Shown here piece by piece: positions 1-5,043 of a DNA stretch of 5,410 nucleotides. The notes below the pieces were generated by a model, which saw only the letters and a program-made list of their open reading frames with translations, was not told the DNA's origin and did no database searches. Source of the stretch: a virus (taxonomy: Duplodnaviria; Heunggongvirae; Uroviricota; Caudoviricetes). Numbering within the stretch: position 1 is the first letter of the stretch; every line of letters begins with the position of its first letter. Position numbers and translations under genes: made by a program. Location: IMG/VR virus record IMGVR_UViG_2737471817_000013. One strand, 5' to 3'.

Positions 1-1818
1 TTAATTTTTACTATCGTCATTAGTGACCGATACACATGATGGCATCCAGTCTTCTGATTCCTCCGTCAGTGTCACGTTTGAACGAAAACCGTGCTTCGTT
101 TTCCGTTTCATATACTCCCTGCCATATTCCGCCATTGCCCCCGGCATATCTTTACCGAAGCGCGTCAGTGTTACAGGTTTACCAAACCCATGTGCCCTCA
201 TATAAGCCAGATAGGCATGATAGAGATACCTACGTGGGCTGAATGGCACAATTTCAGCATTACCCACTAACAGGCCATCACACATTACCGACGCCATGAG
301 ATAGCCGCAGAAGTCCACCAGCGAATCCCCCTCTCGCTTTATCGCCAGTGCTTCTTCAGATTTCTGCTGCTCATATAACAGGCGTCTGGCTTCGTCCTGG
401 TCAGCAAACCGTGTAAGCAGATGGCGAATCACTACCGCCAGCTCACCTTCTATTTTTTCCGCCAGCATGGGGTCGCGCTCGTTCTCCGGTACAACCTCCG
501 AAAAATTGAATATCACCCGACGACGTGAGATCCCCCCGCTGCGGTCACTGAATGACATGGCGTTATTGTTCACCGCCAGCACGACCGCCTGAATGCGTGT
601 TGAGTAGGGGGCTTTATGCTTCGGGTCGATTGCCACCTTGTCACCGCCTGTAATGGCCTTAATTCCTGCGCCATCACCAGCGTAGCGGGTCATATCCGGC
701 ATGATAATCAGCGAAAAGCCAACCACTAACGCGCGTTCCCTTGCATCTTCCAGCGCCTTCATGCTTGCCGATACTGTGTTGGCCTTACCTGCCAGCATGG
801 TGCAAATCTCCGCCATCACGCTTTTACCACTTCCCCCTGGACCTGTTACCTCAATGAATAACTGCCAGTCGTACCGGTTCGCCAGCACCATGAATAATGC
901 AGCCAGCACGCGATCCGCCTTGCGGTCATTCTCAGCCACCGAACGGCGTAACCACTTCCAGAAATTCGGCGCATGTGTTGCCAGCGTTTCCCCCTCTGCT
1001 GGTGGGCTGAAAGGTAATTCACTGGCAATTAACAACCAGTCGTTTTTGTTATGCTCCCGAAAATTACCTGTTCTGGTATCAAATACCCCGTTACTGAATC
1101 CAATCAGGTTACGGGCTGTATTCCCCATTACAGGCAAACTTAACTTCATGGTATCGACCGCCGATTTAATGGCGTTCTGCGAATAGCTGATCTCCGCATC
1201 AATGAAAATCTGTGCCATAGCTCGCTGTAATTCTTTATCCTGAATCGGCTCCCATACAACGCCGTTGTAATGGTGAACAGTGTCAGAGTCAGCATGAATC
1301 GCCAGTTCACCGCCATAATGTGCCAGGAGAACTTCGCCGCGTTGACTTGCTCCCATCTGGTTAAGCGCCAGTGATGAAGCGTTACCGTCTTTTACCCGCT
1401 CTTTTTTCTTTACAGGCAGTTCAACTACCTTTTTCTTTTCCGCCTGCTCTGCCCGTTCACGTTCCAGATATTCGCGCCAGTTCTCCCGTTTCTGGCTGTG
1501 CATTCCTTCAGGGTAATAATCAGCATCCCTGACACCTGCCACTGCCAGTTTCTGCCCGATGGTATTAACAAGCCCCGGACGCAATAACCCCGCCTGATAG
1601 AGACGCACGCGATAGCGTCCGTCCGGTACGATTTGCAGGTTGTCCAGTTCGGCAAGTTGTTGCTCTCCAAGCCAGACAGGAGGCACGTTATCGCCAGCCA
1701 GTCGCCCGTCCTGTTCCTGCCACTGATTCGCATGTGCCCACGCATCACTACCCGCAAAAATGATGACTTCCGTCATTTTGTCACGCGGCTGGTGTTTTAA
1801 ATTTGGCGCTTTTTTCAT
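1..1818 (-). CDS. P4 alpha-like replication protein (primase/helicase: D5_N-like region followed by P4-family primase C-terminal P-loop ATPase domain)
   Basis: 605-codon ORF ending in TAA at 3..1. ATG at 1818..1816 overlaps the TGA of the upstream ORF (ATGA coupling) and is preceded by GGAGAGAG about 8 nt upstream; the ORF-track start at 1833 is a GTG five codons further up. Walker A GPGGSGKS is encoded at 820..843. Downstream motifs (KAITGGDKVAIDPKHKAP, VNNNAMSFSD, RRRVIFNF) and the upstream NGVFDTRTG block match what I remember of the D5_N / P4-primase C-terminal family. A K/E-rich charged linker is encoded at about 1384..1479. Confidence 0.9.
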   Translation of the reverse strand: MKKAPNLKHQPRDKMTEVIIFAGSDAWAHANQWQEQDGRLAGDNVPPVWLGEQQLAELDNLQIVPDGRYRVRLYQAGLLRPGLVNTIGQKLAVAGVRDADYYPEGMHSQKRENWREYLERERAEQAEKKKVVELPVKKKERVKDGNASSLALNQMGASQRGEVLLAHYGGELAIHADSDTVHHYNGVVWEPIQDKELQRAMAQIFIDAEISYSQNAIKSAVDTMKLSLPVMGNTARNLIGFSNGVFDTRTGNFREHNKNDWLLIASELPFSPPAEGETLATHAPNFWKWLRRSVAENDRKADRVLAALFMVLANRYDWQLFIEVTGPGGSGKSVMAEICTMLAGKANTVSASMKALEDARERALVVGFSLIIMPDMTRYAGDGAGIKAITGGDKVAIDPKHKAPYSTRIQAVVLAVNNNAMSFSDRSGGISRRRVIFNFSEVVPENERDPMLAEKIEGELAVVIRHLLTRFADQDEARRLLYEQQKSEEALAIKREGDSLVDFCGYLMASVMCDGLLVGNAEIVPFSPRRYLYHAYLAYMRAHGFGKPVTLTRFGKDMPGAMAEYGREYMKRKTKHGFRSNVTLTEESEDWMPSCVSVTNDDSKN

Positions 1819-2120: not shown

Positions 2121-2441
2121 TTATCCCCGATTTGAATCAGTATTCGCTTTCTTTATGGCATTTAATGCATCTGTGGCATTTTCAATGGTGCACCGTAACG
2201 AAATATCAAACTGCCCAAGCATTGCCAGTAACAAACCGATATTACCCATATCAATGCGCATAGCCTTTTCGTCATAGTCCTCATTTTCTGACGCATGCCA
2301 CATCAGGCTACCAATTGACGCAACAGCCATTGATATATTGTCAGTAGCCCCATCCGCAGCGGAATAAACCTTTTTAGCAATATCATGCTCACAGTTAAAA
2401 TGCGGATTAATCAGGTACTGGTAATTTGACATATCAGGCAT
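2121..2441 (-). CDS. Hypothetical small protein (106 aa)
   Basis: ATG at 2441..2439 preceded by AGGGGG about 8 nt upstream, overlapping the last codons of the upstream ORF by 8 nt. An alternative ATG lies at 2432. The product is acidic; I recognise no family. Confidence 0.6.
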   Translation of the reverse strand: MPDMSNYQYLINPHFNCEHDIAKKVYSAADGATDNISMAVASIGSLMWHASENEDYDEKAMRIDMGNIGLLLAMLGQFDISLRCTIENATDALNAIKKANTDSNRG

Positions 2442-2799
2442 GGCACACCCCCTGACGAATACGGGCGGCGAATACCATCACGCAGCCAGCCGGGGATTGC
2501 TGGCGTGCTTCCTGTTCGCTGGTGGCCTCGATGTGAATTACGCGCGGTTGTGCCGTGCTCAGGGCGATAAAACGCCAGATAAAATTGTTCTCGCATTTCT
2601 GAATAAACAGCGTGTTTTCTTCGCGCCCTTTCCATGTTGCCGAGATATAGCCCATGTCATTGAGCATCTCGCAGGCATCAACCAGCGTATCAGCAGCTAC
2701 GTGTACAGTGTTTTTACCGTCAGCTATGCAATCACGGTGCACCGCCAGGAAGGTGTATATAAATTTAGGGTGAGTTTGGGTATGCTGTGTTCCAGCCAT
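2434..2799 (-). CDS. Hypothetical protein (121 aa), first gene of the primase-proximal operon
   Basis: ATG at 2799..2797 preceded by GAGG (plus-strand cctc at 2808..2811) 8 nt upstream; TGA stop at 2436..2434. Protein-like composition. It is the C-terminal part of the 510-aa ORF-track frame but has its own start signals directly downstream of an AT-rich promoter region. Confidence 0.65.
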   Translation of the reverse strand: MAGTQHTQTHPKFIYTFLAVHRDCIADGKNTVHVAADTLVDACEMLNDMGYISATWKGREENTLFIQKCENNFIWRFIALSTAQPRVIHIEATSEQEARQQSPAGCVMVFAARIRQGVCHA

Positions 2800-2829
2800 A
2801 ATCGTTACCTCATTTAACGGTTTGGTTAG

Positions 2830-2863
2830 ACGCCCCGCTACTGCCGCAAACAGTTCGGGGCGT
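2830..2863 (-). other. GC-rich stem-loop in the putative 5' leader of the primase-proximal operon
   Basis: ACGCCCCG (2830..2837) pairs with CGGGGCGT (2856..2863) around an 18-nt loop that has an internal CTG/CAG pair. It sits between the inferred minus promoter and the RBS at 2808..2811. No U-tract follows on either strand. Confidence 0.3.
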
Positions 2864-2884
2864 TGTCGTTTACATCCTCTTACT

Positions 2885-2986
2885 GAGGTGTGATTTAAAT
2901 TAAATTTAACTGAATCACAGGTCAAGTATTTTTTGTGATTCTTTTTTGTGTATACTGAATCACATCTTTTGTTTAGGAGAATGCAC
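2885..2986. promoter_or_regulatory. Divergent promoter/operator region with four TGTGATT half-sites forming two palindromes
   Basis: TGTGATT at 2889..2895 and 2934..2940; its reverse complement AATCACA at 2913..2919 and 2958..2964. CTGAATCACA is repeated exactly at 2910..2919 and 2955..2964. Plus-strand -10-like TATACT at 2951..2956, then AGGAGA (2975..2980) and ATG at 2987. Minus-strand -35-like TTGACC (plus 2920..2925) and -10-like TAATTT (plus 2897..2902) with a 17-nt spacer, pointing toward the 2799 start. Confidence 0.55.
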
Positions 2987-3292
2987 ATGGCAAAAAACAC
3001 TATCAACGACAAATCAAAACAGATTTCAATTCGTATCCCACATGATGCTTTTGAAGGCATGGAATCCGTAAAACTGGACGGTGAAAGCAACGCCGGATTC
3101 ATAGTAACCGCCATGCGCGGTGAGATCGCCCGCCGCCAGGCAGAAGGAAGCGGAGAAAATCCCCTGGTTTCTTCGCTCGATGCGCTGGCGCAGGTGGAAA
3201 AAATCGGAGTCAAAGCTGCCGAGGAGATCGGGCAGCTCGTCACCGTCGCACGTGAAGAACTCCAGCGCCGCAAGGCCAAAGAATCAGAATAA
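2987..3292 (+). CDS. Ribbon-helix-helix DNA-binding protein, Arc/Mnt-like repressor with a C-terminal helical tail (101 aa)
   Basis: AGGAGA 6 nt upstream of ATG 2987; TAA stop at 3290..3292. Good codon usage. N-terminal KQISIRIP (beta strand), HDAFEGMESVKL (helix A), G-E-S-N-A-G turn and FIVTAMRGEIARR (helix B) follow the RHH pattern of P22 Arc/Mnt (GRS-N-SE turn). The C-terminal 45 residues are A/E/K/L-rich, consistent with an oligomerisation helix. The ORF-track start at 2948 is a GTG inside the promoter and is not preferred. Confidence 0.75.
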   Translation: MAKNTINDKSKQISIRIPHDAFEGMESVKLDGESNAGFIVTAMRGEIARRQAEGSGENPLVSSLDALAQVEKIGVKAAEEIGQLVTVAREELQRRKAKESE

Positions 3293-3349
3293 TAACTATC
3301 ATCGCCGTGGTGTGAGGAACTCCGGCGCATTGCTTTACAGGTACACAGA

Positions 3350-3544
3350 ATGACCAACAAAGAATCAACCAATACACCATCACCGGCACGGAAAAGACGG
3401 CGCAGAAAGATAGAGCACGAATCAGAAAGATTCGCGCCATGTGCTTTTGCCCTTGAGCAATTCCTTAAAGAGTACAGGCGCACAAAAATGGGATCGCATA
3501 CCTGGAAAACATCGCGGCATGGCAATGTTAAAGAGCATGAATAG
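3350..3544 (+). CDS. Doubtful small basic ORF (64 aa) with an arginine-rich N-terminal stretch (ARKRRRRK)
   Basis: ATG at 3350 with a weak AGGT about 8 nt upstream; TAG stop at 3542..3544. It uses several AGA/AGG/CGG/ATA codons that are rare in enterobacterial genes, so coding status is uncertain. Confidence 0.25.
   Translation: MTNKESTNTPSPARKRRRRKIEHESERFAPCAFALEQFLKEYRRTKMGSHTWKTSRHGNVKEHE
3415..3437 (-). terminator. Candidate intrinsic terminator for the alpA operon (hairpin followed by a U-rich tract on the minus strand)
   Basis: GCACGAATC (3415..3423) pairs with GATTCGCGC (3429..3437) with one mismatch around the loop AGAAA. On the minus strand the hairpin is followed by TCTATCTTTCTGCGCCGTCTTTTCC. 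The stem is modest, so this is weakly supported. Confidence 0.3.
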
Positions 3545-3966
3545 CCCACCAGCAAGCCAGCACACTGATCACATTGCCCACCAGCCGCAAATCTGGCATT
3601 GTTGGCAATGTGTTCAAGTGTGTAGCTTTCCCACTGGTGGCCCTCTGCAGTCGCCTTTGTTTTATCCAGAACGAAATCAGACATCAGATTGATCAGCACC
3701 TGGTGACCTGACAAAATCGCATCAGTCACGCCACCAGCAAAATTTTTTGCTTTCCGGACAGCGTGGCCAACGGCATTTTGCAGCGAAATATTCTGCATTT
3801 CTGGCGTGCTGTAGTAACGGTGATCAGTGCCTTCACTCTGTGCGACCACAACGCTATAATCTGCCTCGTAGACAGTAAGCAATATGGCGCAGTAGGCTAT
3901 TCGTTCACAAAGGCGCTCCGGCAACGGGGCGCTTTCTCTTTTTGTAACGGTCAGAGCGTTACACAT
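3545..3966 (-). CDS. Hypothetical protein with a well-supported start but an undeterminable 3' end (no in-frame stop before 2434)
   Basis: ATG at 3966..3964 preceded by GGAGG (plus-strand cctcc at 3976..3980) 9 nt upstream; the start abuts the stop of the upstream gene. The first ~140 codons look protein-like (VTDAILSGHQVLINLMSDFVLDKTKATAEGHQWESYTLEHIANNARF). Beyond about 3545 the translation becomes S/R/C/L-rich and is antisense to plus-strand ORFs. 3545 is a nominal boundary, not an observed stop. Confidence 0.4.
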
Positions 3967-4759
3967 GGCTGTTTTCCTCCATGCGACGGGCTAACCAACG
4001 CTGCGAAAGACGAATTAATTCAGCTTTCCGCTGGTGGTAGCCCTGGCCTAACTCAATCAGCGTGATATTGCTCTGCTCAAGGTAAGAAAGGTGCTCAAGC
4101 TGCAACGTGCTCATGTGGTCGCGTGGTTCGCCTGTGATGCCGTTCGCCTGCGCCCACTGTTTTGCAGTCATGCCACCCAGCACGATACGCGCCAGCATAT
4201 TGGCTTCCGTGGTGTAGTGGTGCTGGAACGTGTTTTTACCCAGTTCAGCCCGGTACGCCTCCAGCGCGGCACACATTGGCTTAAAGTAGCTGGCAACGGT
4301 GATACGGGCTTTCAGTTCCCGGCGTAATGCTGCGGAACGCACTGGCGCTACCTTGTGTAGCTCCTCCTCGCATTTGATAAAGTACTGGCGAACGGCGCGG
4401 CCCTGTTCGGTACGTTCGACCATCGCCAGTTCTTTCGCCATATTCACTGTGATGATGTACTCAAGAGCGGTTTGCTGGCGAGATTTTGCGCTCACCGGAT
4501 CGGGTCGGCTCAAATATTCAACAACCTCATAATCCACGCCTTCCGTGAACCCGTATTCTTCAATGCGCCCCTTGATCCACGAACGGAAAACGCGCCCTAC
4601 ACCTAACGCCTTATGTAACGCTCTGGCGCTAACAATAGTGGTTTCACGCCCACCAATAACGCCGGAAATAACCGGAATAATTTCAGCGAAATTTTGCAGA
4701 TTCTGTTTTTCAGGCCGAACGAAGCCCCGCCCCTGTACAGGCGTATATCCAGTATTCAT
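3959..4759 (-). CDS. Phage regulatory / antirepressor-like protein (Rha or KilA-N/ORF6N-type N-terminal DNA-binding region with ORF6C-like C-terminal region), 266 aa
   Basis: ATG at 4759..4757; TAA stop at 3961..3959. The N-terminal segment TIVSARALHKALGVGRVFRSWIKGRIEEYGFTEGVDYEV and the C-terminal segment TEANMLARIVLGGMTAKQWAQANGITGEPRDHMSTLQLEHLSYLEQSNITLIELGQGYHQRKAEL resemble phage Rha/Ant-type regulators as I remember them. The exact Pfam family is not certain. The RBS is weak. Confidence 0.75.
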   Translation of the reverse strand: MNTGYTPVQGRGFVRPEKQNLQNFAEIIPVISGVIGGRETTIVSARALHKALGVGRVFRSWIKGRIEEYGFTEGVDYEVVEYLSRPDPVSAKSRQQTALEYIITVNMAKELAMVERTEQGRAVRQYFIKCEEELHKVAPVRSAALRRELKARITVASYFKPMCAALEAYRAELGKNTFQHHYTTEANMLARIVLGGMTAKQWAQANGITGEPRDHMSTLQLEHLSYLEQSNITLIELGQGYHQRKAELIRLSQRWLARRMEENSHV

Positions 4760-4811: not shown

Positions 4812-5000
4812 TTAGTGAACTGCCTCGCGGCTGTCCTTCCATGCCAGAACTTCGGATAAAGACCAGCCAACGGAACGACCACCGAGTTTACGCCGTGATG
4901 GGAATTGTCCGGCTTTTTCCAGGCGGTAGCGGCATGAACGGCTCAGGCCTGTAAGTTGCTGACATTCTTTTTCACGTATAAAGCGATCTGTGCTTAACAC
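4812..5000 (-). CDS. alpA: AlpA/Vis-family phage transcriptional regulator (excisionase-like winged helix), 62 aa from a GTG start
   Basis: RFIREKECQQLTGLSRSCRYRLEKAGQFPSRRKLGGRSVGWSLSEVLAWK aligns by eye with E. coli AlpA (RILRLPAVIQKTGMARATIYDWL...MLGVKSVGWIEAEIDEWL). GTG at 5000..4998 is preceded by GGGGG (plus 5005..5009) 4 nt upstream. The ORF-track 104-aa version begins at a TTG at 5126, and its extra N-terminus is the translation of a (CCCAA)n repeat. TAA stop at 4814..4812. Confidence 0.8.
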   Translation of the reverse strand: MLSTDRFIREKECQQLTGLSRSCRYRLEKAGQFPSRRKLGGRSVGWSLSEVLAWKDSREAVH

Positions 5001-5043
5001 AATTCCCCCTTTGTTGTTTCTTAAAGAGTCATTGGGTGGATTA

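Follow-up and report, generated by a model that had tools for sequence, protein, structure and literature searches.

Small constitutive antisense RNAs that lie over the RBS of a lytic or replication decision gene are known from phage P22 (sar RNA) and from plasmids (CopA/Inc-type countertranscripts). In plasmid R1162/RSF1010 such a countertranscript (RepX, RF00043), reportedly described by Kim and Meyer in 1986, is said to be 75 nt long, and the immunity of P4 is said, from work of Forti and colleagues in 1999, to block translation of kil. In E. coli K-12, symE is paired with the antitoxin SymR (RF01809), a cis-antisense RNA of 77 nt (Kawano, Aravind and Storz 2007, PMC1891008). Its promoter lies within symE, it represses SymE translation more than the mRNA level, it is about 10-fold above its target in abundance, and RNase III and Hfq are both dispensable (PMC1891008). 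A silent mutation (CATTCT to CACTCC) in the symR -10 hexamer (TAGAAT, 10 nt before CAU) abolished SymR (PMC1891008). RepX, an antisense RNA with two stem-loops, covers the RBS and start codon of repA-repC and reduces plasmid copy number (PMC8136791), and it binds FinO (El Mouali et al. 2021, PMC8136791); among these systems, copy-number control and FinO binding are known for RepX only. For P4, PMC10111431 relays, after Forti et al. 1999, that translation of the long kil/eta form from the upstream promoter prevents termination. How Gram-negative PICIs silence and switch on their replication module is poorly understood, and published work on this switch centres on AlpA (PMC6092414, PMC11773190, PMC10111431).

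Here we analysed a GC-rich hairpin at positions 2830–2863 of a satellite sequence. We consider it probable, at about three chances in four, that this hairpin is the 3' terminator-like stem-loop of a predicted ~80-nt SymR/RepX-like cis-antisense RNA that would block translation of a kil homologue.

The hairpin and its genomic setting

The window (the whole stretch of 5,410 nt that was analysed) is the regulatory and replication part of a PICI/P4-like phage satellite of Enterobacterales. Its minus strand encodes AlpA (5009..4812), an AntA/Bro-type protein (4759..3959) and an operon that, as assigned by domain matches, has the order icd-like gene, orf106, DUF4222 and D5/P4-type primase (1818..1), with ORFs that overlap or abut (2441/2434, 2121/2114, 1818/1815). 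The first gene of the operon (2434..2799, minus strand, 121 aa) carries the Icd-like domain NF033153 at aa 73–116 (E 1.6e-22). The same domain is present at the C-terminus of the kil/eta ORF of P4 (X51522; L117, 8168–8584; E 7.8e-21), and on this ground the first gene of the window is regarded as a P4 kil homologue. This P4 ORF was annotated in 1990 as 'cI gene product'. A YlcI/YnfO-family gene (2987–3292, plus strand; NF041551, E 3.7e-18), which is also annotated in relatives, is divergent from the operon, and its product is a possible repressor of the switch region. The predicted operon promoter, read by eye, consists of TTGACC (2925..2920), a spacer of 17 nt and TAATTT (2902..2897) on the minus strand. 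This promoter (2925..2897) scored below the threshold of the promoter scan and is hence unlisted there; the pattern TTGAC(A/G/C)-~17 nt-TAnnnT occurs at the equivalent place in nine of nine relatives fetched by protein similarity. Two operator-like inverted repeats of the form TGTGATT-N17-AATCACA (2889–2919 and 2934–2964, 45 bp apart, in the region 2884–2964) each overlap one of the two divergent promoters. Other palindromes occupy the operator place in relatives, which suggests that repressor specificity differs among them, and the repressor may be the YlcI/YnfO-family protein.

Related elements are found in ~1,900 of 5,426 complete E. coli genomes and are annotated with integrase, AlpA, Bro-N proteins, and primase or RepA-type helicase. 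In the phage collection, only one satellite-like record carries both the primase and the icd-like gene. The satellite of E. coli EC42405 (NZ_CP043414.1, L001) is 100% identical to the window over 2700–3000 and has a RepA-family helicase in place of the primase of the window. It is flanked by two terminase pseudogene fragments of a prophage (L001 846–1967 and 12659–13648), an arrangement that fits the 'helper-embedded' PICI configuration (PMC10111431).

The icd-like frame is open far upstream in most relatives, even though promoter, operator and hairpin sequences differ among them; in 70 distinct upstream regions the median was 235 open codons, as compared to 1–3 in the other frames. In the window, this frame forms a 510-aa ORF (3966..2434, minus strand). 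It opens with an ATG at 3966 that overlaps the AntA stop codon, crosses the hairpin and the promoter/operator region, and runs antisense through ylcI and orf64. In this respect the long open frame resembles the nested kil/eta genes of P4. Because the frame is open through the region, annotation pipelines call 'Icd-like' genes inconsistently. RefSeq first-gene calls in near-identical elements, all named 'Icd-like', include proteins of 66 aa and 67 aa, a 190-aa form through the promoter, and pseudogene fragments (L002 4825–5022 and 5401–5958, L003 2753–2956, L004 2735–3307, L001 8732–8890).

On the plus strand the hairpin reads ACGCCCCG-CTACTGCCGCAAACAGTT-CGGGGCGT, with an outer GC stem of 8 bp formed by the arms ACGCCCCG (2830–2837) and CGGGGCGT (2856–2863) and an 18-nt interior that pairs further. 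As minus-strand RNA (2867..2826) it folds at -21.0 kcal/mol with eight outer and six inner pairs (z = -3.18, one of 200 shuffles equally stable), and as plus-strand RNA at -20.9 kcal/mol (z = -3.53, none of 200 shuffles as stable). The hairpin is far beyond chance and was seen in all nine protein-fetched relatives that have upstream sequence. It lies 31–64 nt upstream of the minus-strand ATG at 2799, downstream of the predicted TTGACC-17-TAATTT promoter and upstream of the Shine-Dalgarno sequence GAGG (2811..2808). The initial annotation had described a stable 8-bp GC-rich stem with internal pairing, located about 30–65 nt upstream of the 2799 start and between the minus-strand promoter and the first RBS, and our measurements agree with it on each of these points. 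Its statement that no U-tract follows on the operon strand also stands: the stem is followed there by CUAACCAAACC, a flank that is kept in nearly all variants. On the plus strand it is followed by UUGUCGUUUAC.

Two stem-loops compared with SymR and RepX

Relatives were collected in two sets, ten genome loci fetched by similarity to the Icd-like protein and ~98 viral-contig loci fetched by the conserved flank TCTAACCAAACCGTTAA, which together yielded 44 distinct leader variants that were aligned. Across these variants, conservation covers the stem base (ACGCC/GGCGT or AAGCC/GGCTT) and extends over the 3' flank as far as the ATG; the upper stem and loop were swapped out many times with pairing preserved. 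RNAalifold predicted two helices, in which 12 of 22 pairs vary on both sides. The first helix (stem-loop 1, SL1) is 99% paired and has three such pairs, and the helix of stem-loop 2 (SL2) has nine among its 15 pairs. Covariation in homologous elements, a check that the initial annotation had suggested, was thereby found as compensatory changes in the 44 distinct variants. For the named structure, none of 500 shuffles did as well as the real alignment by any of five measures, and slid controls paired 38–51% of cells versus 91.9% observed, the variants being phylogenetically related and cell counts, here and below, overstating the number of independent events. One apparent relative without the hairpin (L029) was rejected as an unrelated AT-rich phage contig with a chance 17-mer match; the L072 and L096 types look like L029 in the alignment and appear to have only the 17-mer in common with the others. 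The ynfO region of the K-12 prophage Qin was inspected, and no hairpin was seen in it.

From fold, covariation and alignment, an antisense RNA of ~80 nt with two stem-loops is predicted on the plus strand (~2794–2876). SL1 (2794..2827) has a 13-bp stem, with the 5' arm AGCCA-U-AAUCGUUA, which includes the complement CAU of the start codon (2797–2799), and the 3' arm UAACGGUUUGGUU; its 7-nt loop CCUCAUU (2808–2814) is an anti-Shine-Dalgarno sequence. SL1 aligns to SLI of RepX and to SymR. SL2 (2829..2864), the 3' stem-loop that contains the reported hairpin, is indicated by folds, covariation and strand asymmetry and consists of a 9-bp lower stem (GACGCCCCG/CGGGGCGUU), an internal loop, a 4-bp apical helix (ACUG/CAGU) and a 7-nt loop. 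The minus-strand complement of SL2 is the hairpin in the operon leader. SL2 is followed by the U-rich tail GUCGUUUACAUC (2865..2876), which reads UUGUCGUUU together with two U's of the stem and is the presumed 3' end region of the predicted RNA. In the 44 variants the tails follow the pattern UU-G-Y-Y-N-UUU, and the 10 nt that begin with the last two residues of the stem contain 6.1 T on average. The plus strand combines features of an intrinsic terminator, namely a stem of -20.9 kcal/mol and a U-rich tail, with an interruption of this tail that would fail a strict terminator definition. The promoter and terminator scan of the window called nothing at SL2 or at the predicted antisense promoter.

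The predicted -10 hexamer of this promoter, TATGCT (2781..2786, plus strand), is located within codons 5–7 of the icd-like gene and was identified by conservation and alignment. All 47 distinct coding starts have TATGCT, TAGACT or TAAGCT (TAnnCT) at this position, always 10 nt before CAT. At this invariant TAnnCT, codon 6 encodes His, Ser or Leu and codon 5 Gln, Lys or Glu, and the neighbouring bases vary as well. Fixation of TAnnCT while the encoded residues vary indicates a nucleotide-level constraint on -12T, -11A and -7T. Transcription is predicted to start at about A2794, the A of AGCCAU, which is the same position as the 5' end of SymR. By consensus the antisense promoter is weak, with four of six matches in the -10, three of six in the best -35 and no exact extended -10. 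The CATAAT that overlies the start codon was also considered as the antisense -10 and rejected, as transcription would then start within SL1 and the alignments with SymR and RepX point to the hexamer 10 nt upstream. A further observation concerns codons 7–10 (2770–2783), directly upstream of the predicted -10: this stretch, ACC CAA ACT C (GAGTTTGGGT on the plus strand), is almost invariant across genera, synonymous sites included, and resembles the GGTTTGGTTAG arm of SL1.

A covariance model built from satellite variants only (R1), with E-values that are rough, matched the annotated symR of K-12 over its full length and with CAU on CAU (24.3 bits, E 1.2e-5). The match is reciprocal: the Rfam SymR model matched the predicted place and strand in four of eight protein-fetched loci, with 36.7 (E 1.1e-3), 35.9, 28.7 and 24.4 bits, all below the gathering threshold of 61. 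The window's own variant gave no match to the SymR model at E<=10. Like SymR, the satellite RNA would have its 5' end at the A of AG(U/C)CAU, just inside codon 2, and its -10 in codons 5–7, exactly 10 nt before CAU; both RNAs comprise two stem-loops with the anti-Shine-Dalgarno sequence in loop 1, a UGRUUAG linker and a 3' GC-rich stem-loop. By alignment, the predicted RNA is laid out in the manner of SymR: it is antisense to the 5' end of an ORF, covers the Shine-Dalgarno sequence and AUG, and would start just inside that ORF. Its -10 lies within the target ORF where mutation has located that of symR, and its two-stem-loop fold is supported by covariation on the antisense strand. The satellite TATGCT (2781–2786), the symR TAGAAT and the IncQ TAGGCT fall into the same alignment columns. 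The apical sequence of SymR, GUGUUGGCGCAC, is identical to that of some satellite variants, such as L013. The two systems differ in their target, which is symE (AbrB/MazE-fold toxin) for SymR and a gene with the NF033153 Icd-like domain, heading a primase operon, in the satellite. They also differ in the sense promoter, which is associated with YlcI-type palindromes in the satellite and with a LexA box in symE, and in the tail, which is U-richer in the satellite, whereas SymR ends 3 nt past the stem without a U run.

The model R1 also matched the IncQ RepX over its full length on the strand opposite repA (18.1 bits, E 4.4e-4). In the Rfam scan of the window no family reached its gathering threshold and no cis-regulatory family matched; the only hint was R1162 antisense RNA (RF00043) on the target strand, with 19.0 bits (E 8.2) against a gathering threshold of 55. 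On a genuine IncQ1 plasmid (CP044303.1; L116, 564–638), RF00043 scored 98.5 bits on the repA strand, and because RepX is antisense to that region (PMC8136791), the family appears to represent the target strand. This match extends over a GC-rich hairpin, UAACCACCAAC, a small hairpin whose loop contains the Shine-Dalgarno sequence, and AUGGCU, and the IncQ1 repA leader has the layout and spacing of the satellite leader. One further repA plasmid that was examined was without the native leader. RepX and the predicted satellite RNA both have two stem-loops with 7-nt loops and the linker GGUUAG(G/A)CGC; in RepX the -10 (TAGGCT) also stands 10 nt before CAU, and the RNA is antisense to the first replication gene (repA) and negatively controls a replication operon. 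In both systems a replication operon is involved, and the two stem-loops lie antisense to the RBS and start codon of its first gene. The matches are reciprocal (19 and 18 bits) and in register, with low identity and sub-threshold scores. RepX maps within a polycistronic mRNA of the plasmid, where SLII reaches over the end of gene F, whereas the satellite unit is situated in a promoter-proximal leader. Because the scores are below Rfam thresholds, the predicted satellite RNAs stay unannotated.

Possible function at the head of the replication operon

In the reading that we prefer, a plus-strand RNA would start at about A2794 from the -10 TATGCT inside codons 5–7 of the icd-like gene, cross the start codon, the Shine-Dalgarno sequence and the leader, and stop just past the hairpin, near 2865–2876. 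SL1 would present the anti-Shine-Dalgarno sequence in its loop, followed by SL2, the reported hairpin. By analogy with SymR and RepX, the antisense RNA would pair with the perfectly complementary operon leader, in which the mRNA-side hairpin would be the mirror-image target and probably the site of loop-loop contact. Pairing would occlude the RBS and block initiation at 2799, and expression of the primase operon would fall via coupling or Rho-dependent polarity, as in P4 immunity; a drop of downstream expression is to be expected because the downstream ORFs overlap or abut the icd-like gene. The hypervariable top of SL2 on its conserved base would set specificity between related elements, and a variable apex on a conserved base is, by analogy, what we would expect of an antisense specificity determinant. 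The antisense RNA may in this way keep the satellite replication operon silent, and if the likeness to P4 kil/eta is real, this block could be bypassed when the element is induced from the alpA side.

The satellite has in common with P4 that an Icd-like kil heads the primase operon, that a regulatory RNA, predicted in the case of the satellite, is positioned immediately upstream of kil, and that a longer in-frame ORF extends through an internal promoter. In P4, matches to C4 (RF01695; 74.9 bits) and isrK (RF01394) are located just upstream of the kil domain, inside the same ORF. The C4 and isrK models had no match in the window at E<=10. The P4 CI RNA (seqA/seqC) is a sense-strand RNA of the C4 family that is processed from the leader, whereas the satellite structure is selected on the antisense strand.

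A more far-reaching proposal, which we put forward tentatively and regard as possible rather than probable, is that the SymR/RepX-like RNA acts as the immunity factor that silences the replication operon in a widespread Gram-negative family of kil/icd-headed PICI/P4-like elements. It would stand in for the P4 CI RNA, the SL2 apex would define immunity or incompatibility groups, and transcription from the alpA side together with translation of the eta-like ORF would bypass the RNA at induction. If true, one antisense cassette would have been reused three times, in chromosomal symER, in IncQ copy control (RepX) and in satellite immunity, and the predicted RNA would connect SymR/SymE, IncQ RepX and P4 kil/eta immunity, which are usually handled apart. 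A constitutive antisense RNA over the first RBS of the replication module would also be a concrete, testable repressor. Mechanism and architecture are already known from SymR and RepX, and we infer that the satellite setting is new; our literature searches found no description of an antisense RNA in PICIs, or of a SymR/RepX-like RNA in PICIs or P4-like satellites.

The same antisense RNA might alternatively serve as a type I antitoxin for a toxic Icd/Kil-like protein, that is, in addiction or abortive infection and not as an immunity factor or replication gate. We rate this as rather unlikely. In its favour, the target carries an Icd-like 'host cell division inhibitor' domain, like the P4 kil/eta ORF, and overexpression of P4 kil reportedly kills cells, as is said to have been found by Forti and colleagues in 1999. 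The target heads a tightly packed operon that ends in a primase gene, however, and a block at its start is expected to hit the replication genes too. In favour of the antitoxin role, SymR, the closest characterised relative of the predicted RNA, is itself an antitoxin RNA (PMC1891008). The roles as antitoxin and as replication gate are compatible with each other.

Strand of the selected structure and other readings of the hairpin

The aligned variants show a pronounced strand asymmetry. For 21 pairs in 44 sequences, 766 Watson-Crick and 125 G.U cells were counted on the plus strand, and G.U on the plus strand (A.C on the operon strand) outnumbers the reverse by 125:1 in cells and 14:1 in pairs. 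In 39 of 45 variants the hairpin is more stable as plus-strand than as minus-strand RNA, with means of -24.1 versus -19.7 kcal/mol. The whole plus-strand segment 2794–2876 (83 nt) folds into two stem-loops at -31.5 kcal/mol (z = -4.77), as compared to z = -2.64 and no stable second helix for the sense leader. The U-rich tail follows the stem on the plus strand only and mirrors an A-rich tract 5' of the hairpin in the mRNA. The SL1 helix around the Shine-Dalgarno sequence has the same strand asymmetry as SL2; a weak sense hairpin at this site could itself be selected, keeping translation possible, and would then account for part of the asymmetry of SL1. Judged by these sequence comparisons, the structure is selected on the plus strand, opposite to the operon.

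The strand is the main correction to the initial annotation, whose interpretation is partly supported. It had preferred to read the hairpin as an element that acts by itself in processing, stability or protein binding of the operon mRNA, and we consider this reading improbable. The hairpin is within the predicted leader in all variants and is stable as sense RNA (-21 kcal/mol), as such an element would be; its pairing, however, is optimised on the other strand, with 96.7% of cells paired on the plus strand and 83.3% on the operon strand, and C.A or A.C mismatches recur on the operon strand, in several independent variants, where the plus strand has G.U wobbles. The hairpin moreover begins at least ~27 nt from the predicted 5' end and is no 5'-terminal stabiliser, and the apex is unconserved, so that there is no fixed protein-recognition loop. 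A boxA/nut-like or put-like element and a 5'-terminal stabiliser were rejected on the same two grounds, the lack of a conserved loop and the distance from the predicted 5' end. AlpA-type antitermination of a leader terminator (PMC7969949, PMC9371919) was rejected as well, the operon strand being without a U-tract and selection being on the other strand.

The initial annotation had further judged a terminator to be the less likely reading. That the hairpin is no terminator holds only for the operon strand, the one considered there, on which the U-tract of an intrinsic terminator is missing, because the optimised pairing, the U-rich tail and the register with SymR and RepX are all on the plus strand. 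A GC stem with a U-rich tail on the plus strand would also suit an intrinsic terminator or insulator against stray antisense transcription toward the ylcI switch, or a decaying remnant. We hold this to be very improbable, as SL1, the anti-Shine-Dalgarno loop, the linker and the -10 hexamer are conserved along with SL2 across genera and the whole unit matches SymR and RepX colinearly over its entire length, none of which a bare insulator needs. A DNA-level feature (a palindromic protein site, a cruciform or a single-stranded initiation hairpin for the primase) can practically be dismissed: the inverted repeat does stand beside operator-like repeats in an element that encodes a primase, and G.T pairs are tolerated in single-stranded DNA, but the interior has been replaced freely with pairing kept and only the stem base is conserved, unlike in a sequence-specific operator, in which half-sites are conserved and the spacer need not pair, and the register with two known RNAs favours RNA.

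The hairpin apices of the aligned variants fall into two classes, AGUG..CACU and ACUG..CAGU, which are set apart by a G-C to C-G flip. The apex of L110 is an inverted copy of that of L064, and in L022 a promoter region of the window type is joined to an apex of the L006 type. Read from the alignment, the patterns in L110 and L022 point to recombination or inversion within the hairpin.
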